The notes below the pieces were generated by a model that worked only from the letters and a program-made list of their open reading frames with translations, was not told the origin of the DNA and did not search any database. A stretch of 64,000 nt of DNA from an uncultured Phycisphaerales bacterium. GTDB taxonomy: Bacteria > Planctomycetota > B15-G4 > CAYZWU01. Numbering within the stretch: the first letter of the stretch is position 1; every line of letters starts with the position of its first letter. The position numbers and the translations under genes are program-made. The stretch is taken from NCBI GenBank assembly GCA_964542475.1, contig CAZIUL010000007.1, forward strand, positions 34,067-98,066. The letters are read 5' to 3'. Below are positions 44,464-59,414 of this stretch, piece after piece.

Positions 44464-44758
44464 GGGCAACCCCCTGTGTGGTTGACATCCGGTGCGGGAT
44501 GGAGGGCGTCGCTCCGTCGGTGCAGCAACCGAACCTACACCGAACGAAAACGGCCTGGAGGGTCGGGGTCCTTCCCGACCGGAAAAGAAGAGGCGGCAAC
44601 AGAGTGCCGCCCTCCAGATGAAACGGCACATACCGCATGAACAATGGAGGGCGCCGCTTTGTCGGCGCCGGAAAAGAAGAGGCGGCAACAGAGTGCCGCC
44701 CTCCAGATGAAACGGCACATACCGCATGAACAATGGAGGGCGCCGCTCCGTCGGCGCC
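44460..44758 (+). repeat. BIME-like cluster: GTAG palindrome, degenerate type B, type C, and two tandem 89-bp A+B units
   Basis: GTAGGGGCAACCCCCTGTGTGGTTG; type C TGGAG-GGTCGGG-GTCCTT-CCCGACC (44556-44580); direct repeats starting at 44579 and 44668. Confidence 0.9.
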
Positions 44759-44777
44759 GCCTCCCTCTGAAAAACGC

Positions 44778-46121
44778 CTACGGCAAGAACTCGATCTCGG
44801 CCGCGTTCGACACGTAGTCATAGGGCCCGTACAACAGGAAGGCAAAACGCATTGGAACACCGATCGCATTGGGGGACAGTGGTCCCAGCGTGTTGAACTG
44901 TGCTGTTGCCGACCCTTTCGAGTCAAGGGTTCCCTGGAAATCGATAAAGGCCGGTGTGTTTGCCATCCCAAAGATCAAGGTTGTGACAAAATCCCAGTTC
45001 AGAGGGAAAACCTTGCCGCTCGGAAGAGTAAAACCCGGATCGGTTCCGGTGACGTTTCCAAGAAGAAAGTAGTTCCTGTTCGGGTGGTCCCTGCCCAGAC
45101 CGAGAGAGAAATCTATTGTGCCGCCGGTGGAAACATGGATCCGGTTGTTTTCGAGAGAAAGCGGCCCCACCGCCTCGAAATAGCGCACATAGCCTTCCGG
45201 GCTGTTGTCGAAGTTCCGGTTGCCCACAAGCAGATCCTGCACACCGTCGTTGTTCCAGTCCGCTACATCCAGGCGCGCGTAGTAGACCACGTCGATTATG
45301 CTTCCTCCGGCCTTGAGCTTCATACTTCCGTTGAACAGCGGCGAGACATCAGTGCCTGTGTTTTCCCAGTAGTTCACATTCCCGTTGTAATCGCCGCACA
45401 GGAGGTCCCTCTTGCCGTCCCGGTTCCAGTCAACCATTACCGGGCTTGCTTCGTTCCCGGTGGTAAGAGTGGACACGCCATCCTGCAGCCAGACGGCTCT
45501 GTTGAACACCGGCGTGGAAGTCGGGCTCACGTTAATGAGCAGGTGCACCTTGCCGCCATCTTCTCCCACTAGCAGGTCGACCTTGCCGTCCTTGTTCCAA
45601 TCCACGAAAAAAATGTGGGAATTGAGCCCGCAGTCGTAGTTGACCGCTCCCAGCCTCAGGAAGGTGTATCCGTTGAACTGGGGATCGTCATCCGTGTTTG
45701 TGTTCAGGTAGATGCGAATGGTTCCGTTCCGTTCGCCCACGATAAGATCCTTCTTTCCGTCTCCGTTATAGTCCACGACACGTGGACAAGAACCGAAACA
45801 TCAGGAGTACGATGTGGTAATGGTAACTCCACCGGATTTAAGCTTGACTCCTGCCGGGAACTCTGGATTGAGATCCGTGCCGTTGTTCAGGAAAAGAGTG
45901 ATGTGACCATAACCGAAACACCCGACAAGCAGGTCTTTCGCCCCGTCATTGTTCCAGTCCACAACCTCCGGGGTCGCGTGCCTGTCCACCAGGTAGGGCG
46001 ATCCATTGGCTTCGATGATGACCGCGCTCTTCAGCTCAGGCATCGCTCCATGCGCCGGCCCGGCCATGAAAGCCGACACCAGGAGCACCAGGGGTAAAAC
46101 AAAAAACACCGCTTTTCTCAT
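44778..46121 (-). CDS. Secreted FG-GAP repeat protein with in-frame TGA (candidate Sec107) and C-terminal domain
   Basis: ORFs 45801..46157 and 44778..45776 share a frame and are separated only by TGA (45803-45801) plus 8 sense codons: TITTSYS-*-CFGSCPRVVDYNGDG. RBS GGAGG and signal peptide at 46121; VVDWNNDG-type repeats on both sides of the TGA. Confidence 0.8.
45760..45798 (-). promoter_or_regulatory. Candidate bacterial SECIS element
   Basis: After the UGA: perfect GUCCAC/GUGGAC stem with a GUGUC loop starting at +20; lower stem UUUC-G-GUU / AAC-G-GAGA. Confidence 0.65.
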
Positions 46122-46306
46122 GACAACCTCCAGGATCTCAATGTACTTTATACACACAACACGGGCTTGTTTATCGCCTCTCCAGTATCAGATCGGCAGA
46201 TGAGAAGGGTTGGTTTAGCTGATGATATTTTACACGATCCCATGAAAAACGGAACGTTGAAAACAACAAATATCTTGCATGGATGTCAGGAAGAAGTGTT
46301 CGGTGT

Positions 46307-57720: not shown

Positions 57721-59280
57721 TTACTCCACTTCGAAAGTACAGAGGTTGGTCAGTTTATAACCGATCATCGCCTGGAAGTAAACTGTGTAGGGGCCGGGAG
57801 GAGCAGGCGGCACCGTACCCGGGTGCACGAGCACACCGCAGGAAGGGATCGAAGGAAGAGGAGGCAAAACGGCAAAAGGGAAGCTGATGTACCAGTCGCC
57901 GTACGCGCTCGGCAGGGGAGGATCATAAACGCTGAACCCGGCCACCAACCCTACCTGAGCGGTCAGGGGATCGCCGACGAATTTAAGCTCCACGCACTGG
58001 CCGGGGGAGGGATCGCCGGTGAAATAAAGATGCCTGTGAAATTCATCCGCCCCGATATCCGGTCCGGCTCCGAATGTACGCTCATCGTACTCGAAGTCGG
58101 TTTCCGGAAGCCCGGGGGCCAGGCTGTCCCCGGCATCTCTCAAAGGCGAGTGATGGAAGATGTGGAAATCGTTGCCCTCCGCATCGACAAAACATGGGTC
58201 ATCATCGATGTTGCCCGTTCCGGGGCAGCCGCCCTCCACGTCGCAGAACGAAACCAGAGGTGTACTGTTCATTGCCAACAACTGCTTGGGAACGTTTCCA
58301 TAGACGATGCAGTTCGTGATGCTGGGCGAGCTGTTATAGCAAGCAATGCCGTACGCCGAGTTTCCAAAGATGGTGTTGTTCGTGATCCTCATCGCCGAGG
58401 ACGTGGACATACACTTGATGCCGCCGCTCTTGTTGCCGTAGATGATGTTGTTGACGAAATCACCTTCTCCCATGAAGCTCTGGATGCCAACGGAAGCGTT
58501 GTCGTGGATGACGTTGCCGCGAACAGATGAATTCCCGTTACAAAAATAGAAGGCGCCGTAAAAGCCTAAGTTGGCAATAACCAGGTTGTTCTCCACAACC
58601 GGAAAGGAGTCTAAACACTCTATAGCGCCGGAGTGCCATGCGCCGTTGTTCTCCACAAAAACGTTGTAGGTTATGACAGGCCATGAGTCGACGCAATGCA
58701 TACCGGCTCCGCCGCACTTGCAATAGTTTCCCGAGATAATGTTTCCCTGGACCAGGGGTGAGGAGTCGGAGGAGTAAACCCCGCCGCCCTCGGCGCTTCA
58801 GTCCCAGGGCGGGCCGTTCTCAACGATCAGGTTGTCCTTTATCGATGGCGAGGATCCGTCCTTGCAGCAGATCCCGCTCCCGCGCGGGGACATGTTCTGA
58901 GTGATCACGTTGTTCGTGATCAAGGGCGCTGAACCGCCGCAAAAAATCCCGCCGCCCAGAGGAGACTTCCCGTTGCAAATGGTGAAGCGCTCAAGAACCG
59001 ATCCTTCCCCCTCCCCGCTTTCAAACGTCACAACACTGCCCGCCTCCAGGCCGTCGATGATCGACAACTGTGGGCCGTCCTCGCTGGTAAGTGTAATGGC
59101 CTTACCATTGAAATCGATGTTTTCCGCGTACGTTCCGGCAGCGACAAGAACCACATCACCGTCCGATGCCGCGTCGATGGCCCCCTGTATCGTGGGATAA
59201 TCCAGGGGCACATGAACAGTGGCTGCAAACGCGGCAGCCGTATGATACAGAACGATGCCGATGATGATTGTCTTTCTCAT
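57721..59280 (-). CDS. Secreted right-handed parallel beta-helix protein with in-frame TGA (candidate Sec161) and C-terminal domain
   Basis: ORFs 58798..59310 and 57721..58701 share a frame and are separated only by TGA (58800-58798) plus 32 sense codons that continue the repeat: NGPPWD-*-SAEGGGVYSSDSSPLVQGNIISGN. VPLDYPTIQGAID N-cap; RBS GGAGG and signal peptide at 59280. Confidence 0.8.
58760..58791 (-). promoter_or_regulatory. Candidate bacterial SECIS element
   Basis: After the UGA, +7 to +38 folds as GAGGG/CUCCUC-side, CGG/CCG and GGGG/CUCC stems, with G-U at the apex (+19/+20). Confidence 0.5.
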
Positions 59281-59414
59281 GCGATCCTCCGCAAAACACG
59301 CCGAGAACAACTACCAACAGGCTATCTGTCTATCCATGAGGGTTATAATAACCGAATATGCTTGTTTGTCGAGGATTTTCGCGCATGGACGGCCTCCGGC
59401 CTCAAGCCCGCTTA

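Follow-up and report, generated by a model that had tools for sequence, protein, structure and literature searches.

The window analyzed here, a stretch of 64,000 nt from an uncultured Phycisphaerales bacterium (contig CAZIUL010000007.1), carries on its minus strand a gene for an FG-GAP/VCBS propeller protein that was annotated as two open reading frames (ORFs). One, at 45801-46157, has 118 aa and an upstream GTG start; the other, at 44778-45776, has 332 aa and begins with a GTG within VDYNGDG. Both lie in one frame. From the ATG at 46121 to the TAG at 44780-44778, that frame contains exactly one internal stop, the TGA at 45803-45801, which is codon 107. A first-pass annotation, made by reading the DNA, had proposed that the two ORFs are one frame broken by a single TGA, and this was exact. 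Read through, the gene gives a product of 447 aa, beginning with MRKAVFFVLPLVLLVSAFMAGPAHG followed by AMPEL... and reading TITTSYS-U-CFGSCPRVVDYNGDGKKD... around residue 107. We consider it very probable that the gene encodes one exported selenoprotein, in which UGA107 is read as selenocysteine (Sec, U107).

The signal peptide is encoded only 5′ of the TGA, and the downstream ORF has none, as had been claimed. On reading the sequence, it was assigned to the general secretory/signal peptidase I type, without a lipobox Cys, and cleavage probably occurs after AHG; residues 1-19 were disordered in the AlphaFold2 model (pLDDT <50). All 11 full-length homologues examined had an ATG (GTG in L019) and a hydrophobic N-terminus about 100-125 codons 5′ of the TGA. 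The remaining architecture that the first-pass annotation had given for the 447-aa product with U107 (FG-GAP repeats and a C-terminal domain after the signal peptide) was confirmed by sequence reading and by Pfam, in which FG-GAP_3 (PF13517) scored 74.4 bits against a cut-off of 26.9 and FG-GAP (PF01839) scored 41.5 against 22.1. The features of the locus are listed in Table 1.

Table 1. Features of the predicted FG-GAP selenoprotein gene and its 3′ flank, in window coordinates
Feature	Position	Strand	Basis
Complete coding sequence of the predicted FG-GAP selenoprotein, 447 codons plus TAG, UGA107 as Sec	44778..46121	-	One frame; homologue alignment on both sides; dN/dS
Signal peptide, residues 1-25, MRKAVFFVLPLVLLVSAFMAGPAHG, predicted cleavage after AHG	46047..46121	-	Sequence reading; homologues; AlphaFold2
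In-frame UGA, proposed Sec codon (U107), followed by Cys108 (vicinal U-C)	45801..45803	-	Column conservation; Cys forms
SECIS-like hairpin GUCCACG-UGU-CGUGGAC, also coding for S/C-P-R-V-V-D	45771..45787	-	Folding; alignment of 43 genes
FG-GAP/VCBS beta-propeller, residues ~27-318	45168..46043	-	Pfam; invariant columns; AlphaFold2; fold matches
C-terminal domain, residues 320-447 (~125 residues)	44781..45164	-	tblastn against the genome; AlphaFold2
Terminator-like hairpin 3′ of the TAG, inside a repeated element; second copy at 44591-44612	44680..44701	-	Consensus match only

Conservation of the TGA column

The decisive evidence for the predicted Sec site is the conservation of its TGA. A comparison at the DNA level revealed a TGA in the same column in three further paralogues of the genome, on contigs C36, C77, and C80. 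When four sampled genomes of the same taxonomic family were added to this genome, the TGA was present in 35 of the 35 matches that span residue 107, and the only stop-free matches covered other parts of the protein. Three of these four relatives had about 9 to 15 copies per genome.

The TGA was also carried by metagenome-assembled genomes (MAGs) labelled Verrucomicrobiota, Kiritimatiellae, Pirellulales, Phycisphaerae, and Planctomycetaceae, and by 18 metagenome contigs of the protein family. The metagenome loci came from a scan with generic FG-GAP motif patterns (alignment A1), and at least 18 family members were found among the 80 loci listed. Across the phylum, sampled evenly with 251 genomes, the family was present in 42 genomes, belonging to 37 of the 204 sampled genera, and about 50 of the 56 matches contained one TGA.

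Altogether, 65 distinct TGA sites were collected. The next residue was Cys in 63 of them and the preceding residue was Gly in 53; the resulting motif is G-U-C-x-G-[SAF]-x-P-[RQH], with G-U-C-x-G-x-x-P as its core. The UCxxxC motif that had been suggested earlier has to be replaced by this one: Cys112 is not conserved, and the only residues conserved besides the repeat motifs are U107, C108, G110, and P113.

The exchange of Sec and Cys at one column is a standard criterion in the computational prediction of selenoproteins. Cys occupied the Sec column in a minority of the homologues, such as P0112 (SYS-C-NLGSSP) and L277/L278, from two genomes of one genus (G-C-LGAFPR). In a sister subfamily, 12 full-length proteins had IT-C-C-ISFCP where the Sec form had TT-U-C-ICFCP. 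Neither Trp, Arg, nor any other ordinary residue was found at this column among the family members examined.

The approximately 100 best database homologues (45-61% identity) were all about 325-340 aa long and covered only the C-terminal 74% of the protein. They start at VDWNNDGKKD or MGxxPRVVDW, and the fragments are named "VCBS repeat-containing protein" in GenBank; the gene callers cut all of them at one same place. Such output is what would be obtained if the two ORFs were expressed apart, one as a secreted single-blade peptide of about 80 residues and the other as a cytoplasmic protein of 332 aa from the internal GTG. That arrangement is highly improbable. The downstream ORF would begin in the middle of a Ca2+ loop and would have no signal peptide, and the putative starts vary among homologues (V or M at VDW, or MGxxPR). 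Moreover, without blade 1 the propeller of the AlphaFold2 model would be incomplete, Cys forms exist as uninterrupted proteins, and the TGA is fixed to the exact codon in 65 genes.

Selection on the two sides of the TGA was compared by the ratio of nonsynonymous to synonymous substitution rates (dN/dS) in 16 full-length members of the same family, with dS near saturation and the ratios accordingly rough. From the end of the signal peptide to the TGA (80 codons), identity averaged 0.55 and the median dN/dS was 0.29; the values were 0.54 and 0.32 for the rest of the propeller, 3′ of the TGA, and 0.50 and 0.31 for the C-terminal domain. Purifying selection thus appears to be equal on both sides. 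This argues against a pseudogene, for which the in-frame stop itself is the only indication. An assembly error is excluded as well, given that this TGA recurs in dozens of independent assemblies and in the paralogues. We regard the reading of the TGA as a pseudogene mutation or as a sequencing or assembly error as effectively refuted already.

The same test of conservation can fail. A beta-helix gene at 57721-59280 (minus strand; region 57721-59310) had been named in the first-pass annotation as a second selenoprotein, and its TGA is not conserved: it was almost alone among the about 150 homologue matches listed from 13 genomes, three others of which carry stops. In the closest paralogues, the TGA position falls in a variable loop that has no Cys. 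We therefore did not count this gene towards a "secreted selenoproteome" and used it as a negative control; it resembles a pseudogene or an isolated event rather than a conserved Sec site.

The hairpin after the UGA and the selenocysteine machinery

A perfect GUCCAC/GUGGAC stem had been noticed at about +20. The hairpin found there, GUCCACG-UGU-CGUGGAC (45787-45771), has a 7-bp stem that starts 13 nt after the UGA and a loop that begins 20-21 nt after it. Folded alone, the 71-nt region gave -23.5 kcal/mol, with a modest z-score (z = -2.3). The significance of this candidate selenocysteine insertion sequence (SECIS) rests on the comparison with other genes and not on the fold of a single sequence. 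In 64 of the 65 sites, the UGA is followed by a stem of 5 bp or more, and the spacer between the two is 12-14 nt long in 49. The core UCCAC/GUGGA was kept in 43 of 43 aligned genes, with one mismatched pair in three of them.

Among these 43 sequences, pair 30-38 of the hairpin alignment changed from A-U to G-C three times and to G-U three times, and the basal pair changed from G-C to A-U five times. Neither the observed covariation score nor the number of double changes was reached by any of 500 shuffles. When the partners were slid by 1-3 columns, they paired in 25-44% of the cells, versus 86% in the true register.

Equivalent 30-nt windows in other blades of the same proteins, which encode the same peptide motif, were used as a control. 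The mean minimum free energy of the hairpin was -10.1 kcal/mol at the Sec blade, as compared with -5.7 in the other blades (p = 2e-13). The Pro codon inside the hairpin was CCA in 36 of 43 Sec blades and in 6 of 110 other blades. It was CCG in six genes; in three of these (L020, L110, and L134) the paired Val codon (GUG) is replaced by an Ala codon (GCG), an amino acid change that was driven by the RNA pairing, and the remaining three (L019, L181, and L185) keep the pair as G-U. The hairpin and the peptide P-[RQ]-x-V-D lie on the same bases; therefore, the RNA pairing constrains the protein. An extended lower SECIS stem (UGCAUCG with CGAUGGCA) was seen in single folds and was discarded, as it was not kept across the alignment.

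The host genome (G000; 4.87 Mb in 121 contigs, about 91% complete) was searched for the Sec machinery, and selA, selB, selC, and selD were all present. The tRNA-Sec scored 77 bits and was called SeC with anticodon tca by ARAGORN, and selA scored 519 bits. Two selB-like genes (C27:50140-52029 and C3:140434-142353) scored above the cut-off of TIGR00475, and both matched the C-terminal, SECIS-binding part of this model; one of them clusters with selD and selA in the order selB-selD-selA. The genome has two selD genes. One of them (C10:67507-68433, L192) carries an in-frame TGA at the usual G-U-x-x-K site (GU-ASK), with a hairpin 12 nt after the TGA and a GU-containing loop, and is itself a selenoprotein; the second copy, without an in-frame stop, presumably has Cys at this site. 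A selA gene was found in 39 of the 41 sampled genomes of the order. Two copies of selA each were present in the four sampled genomes of the same family. The isoleucyl-tRNA synthetase encoded in the window shares about 70% identity with those of three MAGs labelled Phycisphaerales; by this single marker, the organism probably belongs to the class Phycisphaerae of the Planctomycetota.

Reassignment of TGA (genetic code 4 or 25) was ruled out because TGA terminates 1645 of the 3045 long ORFs of the genome and is its commonest ordinary stop. We also considered that the UGA might be read through, or recoded to a standard residue (Cys, Trp, or Gly) without Sec, with the hairpin merely stimulating readthrough. 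Hairpins located after a stop codon promote readthrough in some systems, and the case for Sec is built on sequence evidence only. Nevertheless, this explanation is improbable in view of the full Sec machinery, the normal use of TGA as a stop, and the substitution of Cys for UGA in homologues, which is a hallmark of Sec sites. The geometry of the hairpin also agrees with that of the genome's own selD and with the bacterial SECIS consensus, in which a stem-loop lies shortly 3′ of the UGA (summarised in PMC13188914).

The first-pass annotation had inferred a secreted propeller selenoprotein, and our results support this view. The computational tests that it had named beforehand as able to refute it all favoured Sec: the TGA column, the machinery genes, the independent assemblies, and the synonymous sites, whose constraint appears as the CCA codon bias and the compensatory changes in the hairpin.

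We propose that UGA107 would be decoded as Sec by the standard bacterial route. The hairpin, 13 nt 3′ of the UGA, would serve as the SECIS element and would recruit SelB with Sec-tRNA(Sec), and the ribosome would then insert Sec without terminating. The product would have a cleavable signal peptide, an FG-GAP/VCBS propeller bearing the five Ca2+-loop motifs, and a C-terminal domain that many other secreted proteins of the genome also possess. Its vicinal Sec-Cys pair would form a redox-active selenenylsulfide/selenol centre for an extracytoplasmic substrate.

This arrangement resembles the fdhF type of Escherichia coli in having an in-frame UGA followed, after 12-14 nt and inside the reading frame, by a small stem-loop with G/U in the apical loop. 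It shares with such genes the presence of SelA, SelB, SelC, and SelD in the genome and of Cys at the Sec column in homologues. It differs in that the stem is very short (5-7 bp, with a loop of 3-5 nt) and the conserved bulged U was not seen. The FG-GAP protein is unrelated to FdhA or to any listed selenoprotein family, and binding of SelB to its hairpin is a prediction.

The propeller, the proposed Sec-Cys loop and its possible function

Five motifs of the form D-x-[ND]-x-D-G-x-x-D were found in the propeller, at residues 55-63, 117-125, 174-182, 231-239, and 288-296, and by analogy these loops would bind Ca2+. An AlphaFold2 model built on an alignment of 110 sequences yielded an FG-GAP propeller plus a C-terminal domain (pLDDT 92, pTM 0.87). 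The best fold matches were the BBSome and integrin-alpha propellers (Foldseek probability 1.0), together with PVL lectin and UmbA4, and the best sequence-profile matches were integrin alpha4 and CRTAC1. TM-scores to the fold matches reached only about 0.35, as would be expected if the propeller is smaller and has five repeats.

The Sec insertion is located in the loop that joins blades 1 and 2. There, U-C-x-G forms a four-residue insertion relative to the other blade junctions, five residues before the innermost strand of blade 2. In integrin-type propellers, a loop of this type lies on the upper, ligand-binding face; by analogy, the Sec loop would be placed on that face, beside the central axis. 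Since conservation outside the repeat motifs is limited to the four residues named above, the functional unit is taken to be the local Sec-Cys loop.

The C-terminal domain (residues 320-447) has no Cys and no Pfam match, and it was modeled as mostly beta with a pLDDT >94. A tblastn search of the genome with P0001 showed that about 40 predicted proteins, otherwise unrelated, have the same domain at their C-terminus, where it ends in ...EIxP. Their genes lie on contigs C1, C11, C13, C29, C41, C49, C57, C58, C66, C68, and C80, among others, and by eye an S8-type peptidase and further FG-GAP proteins are among them. We can only guess that the domain serves in sorting or anchoring. Other architectures of the Sec propeller exist: an 858-aa form with a long C-terminal extension in a Verrucomicrobiota MAG (L018:2977-5550), a 592-aa form with a CARDB domain (L182:772-2547), and propeller-only forms of about 342 aa (contig C80 of the host genome and L020-L025).

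Indications of function came from a sister subfamily. Its metagenome member L116 (1597-3135) has a C-terminal DsbD_N domain (PF11412; 34.5 bits against a cut-off of 25) with the motif C-x4-C-M-P-P. About 45 of the 120 best homologues of L116 carry PF11412, and four also carry PF00578 (AhpC/TSA). From these fusions we argue that the dichalcogenide would exchange electrons with a thiol relay. The sister subfamily thus shares, at its C-terminus, the N-terminal (alpha) domain of the DsbD electron relay, and the domain there contains a Cys pair; this suggests that the propeller dichalcogenide is a DsbD-type client. Unlike the DsbD-linked proteins, the window protein has a C-terminal domain without Cys, and neither it nor its genome has DsbD_N. 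Redox chemistry of the Sec-Cys loop is the best-supported guess, and for the window's own subfamily it is an extrapolation.

In the marine subfamily to which L116 belongs (L116, P0123-P0163), either a Sec or a Cys-Cys propeller is fused to DsbD_N, sometimes with AhpC/TSA in addition. Most database entries of this subfamily are cut at the TGA (about 427 aa, 83% coverage).

A real alternative that also accepts Sec insertion, although we judge it unlikely, is that the Sec-Cys dyad binds a soft metal or metalloid (Hg, Cu, Cd, As, or selenium) and that the propeller sequesters or senses this ion. The adjacent Sec/Cys motifs (CU, GxUC) of the 2026 catalogue of prokaryotic selenoproteins occur mainly in metal-handling families (PMC13188914), and the lack of a second conserved catalytic residue on the propeller and of a DsbD_N partner in the genome would agree with binding. 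In contrast, the DsbD_N and AhpC/TSA fusions of the sister subfamily point to thiol-disulfide exchange. No metal-resistance genes were evident, by eye, beside the four paralogues, and up to a dozen paralogues per genome would be unusual for a metal-binding protein.

Under the redox interpretation, we put forward tentatively that the G-U-C-x-G loop may be a new extracytoplasmic catalytic centre outside the thioredoxin fold. The centre would be a vicinal selenenylsulfide, located on the ligand-binding face of the FG-GAP propeller in its Ca2+-loaded state. A thiol relay of the DsbD type would recharge it, acting in cis in the marine fusions and through another partner here. The expansion to a dozen paralogues per genome in the Phycisphaerae-like lineage suggests a set of Sec enzymes with different surface substrates. 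On this view, these enzymes would be one of the main reasons for the retention of the Sec machinery in this Sec-using order.

Several observations weigh against the exported redox selenoprotein proposed here. Covariation in the hairpin is based on few events, with double changes in three of the seven pairs and an RNAalifold covariation term of only -0.11, because the stem is short, mostly invariant, and overlaps a conserved peptide. A scan of the locus against Rfam gave no matching model. The vicinal Cys is absent in 2 of the 65 members. Within the propeller, the structural model has its lowest confidence at the Sec loop (block 101-110, pLDDT 73), and the position of this loop on the upper face is taken only from the topology of integrins. 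The redox function is deduced from fusions in a different subfamily, and profile searches found no DsbD_N domain in the window protein or anywhere in the genome. No conserved neighbour was recognized by eye around the four paralogues of the genome, whose neighbours are unrelated, and the alignment columns revealed no further conserved catalytic residue on the propeller.

Relation to known selenoproteins and the 3′ flank of the gene

A 2026 review lists 119 prokaryotic selenoprotein families, and there is no FG-GAP, VCBS, or propeller entry among them in its Table 1 (PMC13188914). Such an FG-GAP/VCBS family is not mentioned in deep-Sep or BSepDB either. No NCBIfam model reached its cut-off, and neither of the two sub-threshold matches is a selenoprotein model. 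In the literature that was searched, no co-mention of "selenocysteine" and "VCBS" was found, and the co-mentions of "FG-GAP" and "selenoprotein" were unrelated. The earlier claim that the class is undescribed holds for the published catalogues searched. The recoding follows the known mechanism, and the novelty lies in the protein family together with its fold, compartment, and copy number.

The protein resembles integrin-alpha-type propellers (alpha4, alphaIIb, CRTAC1, PVL lectin, BBSome) in its FG-GAP profiles, in having one Ca2+-loop motif per blade, and in its best fold and sequence matches. It differs from them in having five Ca2+-loop repeats instead of seven blades, and in the low TM-scores given above. 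We know of no integrin-type propeller that contains selenocysteine or has U-C or C-C inserted into the loop joining its first two blades.

Thioredoxin reductase, a cytosolic flavoenzyme, has a C-terminal Gly-Cys-Sec-Gly redox centre. As in that enzyme, the Cys and Sec of the propeller are vicinal and flanked by Gly, and by analogy they could form an eight-membered selenenylsulfide ring on a flexible, exposed segment. Unlike in thioredoxin reductase, the order is reversed (G-U-C-x-G), the site is an internal loop of an extracytoplasmic propeller, and the two proteins are not homologous. Adjacent Sec and Cys residues are also catalogued in the CopZ-family 2Fe-2S proteins (GxUC, CU), HgcA, the MerB-like SaoL, and MbdU (Table 1 of PMC13188914). 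The FG-GAP protein is like these in its neighbouring Sec and Cys, whereas their folds are unrelated, they are mostly cytoplasmic metal-handling proteins, and their NCBIfam models do not match it.

If the gene is decoded as proposed, it has several implications. Among bacteria, the known selenoproteins are mostly cytoplasmic redox enzymes, and many have the thioredoxin fold. To this range, a Sec propeller that is exported and integrin-like would contribute an unrelated fold and a further cell compartment, and the family would offer a candidate redox centre that lies outside the thioredoxin fold and can be tested. The systematic annotation as two fragments would mean that thousands of database entries are wrong and that the sizes of the selenoproteomes in these lineages are underestimated. 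The gene would also be a clean case of naturally occurring dual coding: its SECIS hairpin would determine which codon, and even which amino acid, is used (CCA..GUG versus CCG..GCG).

The region 3′ of the TAG contains a tandem repeat element of about 90 nt (window 44500-44760), each copy of which has a GC-rich hairpin followed by a T-run (44680-44701 and 44591-44612). This REP-like element sits between the selenoprotein gene and a convergent prolyl oligopeptidase gene, and it may act as a bidirectional terminator.

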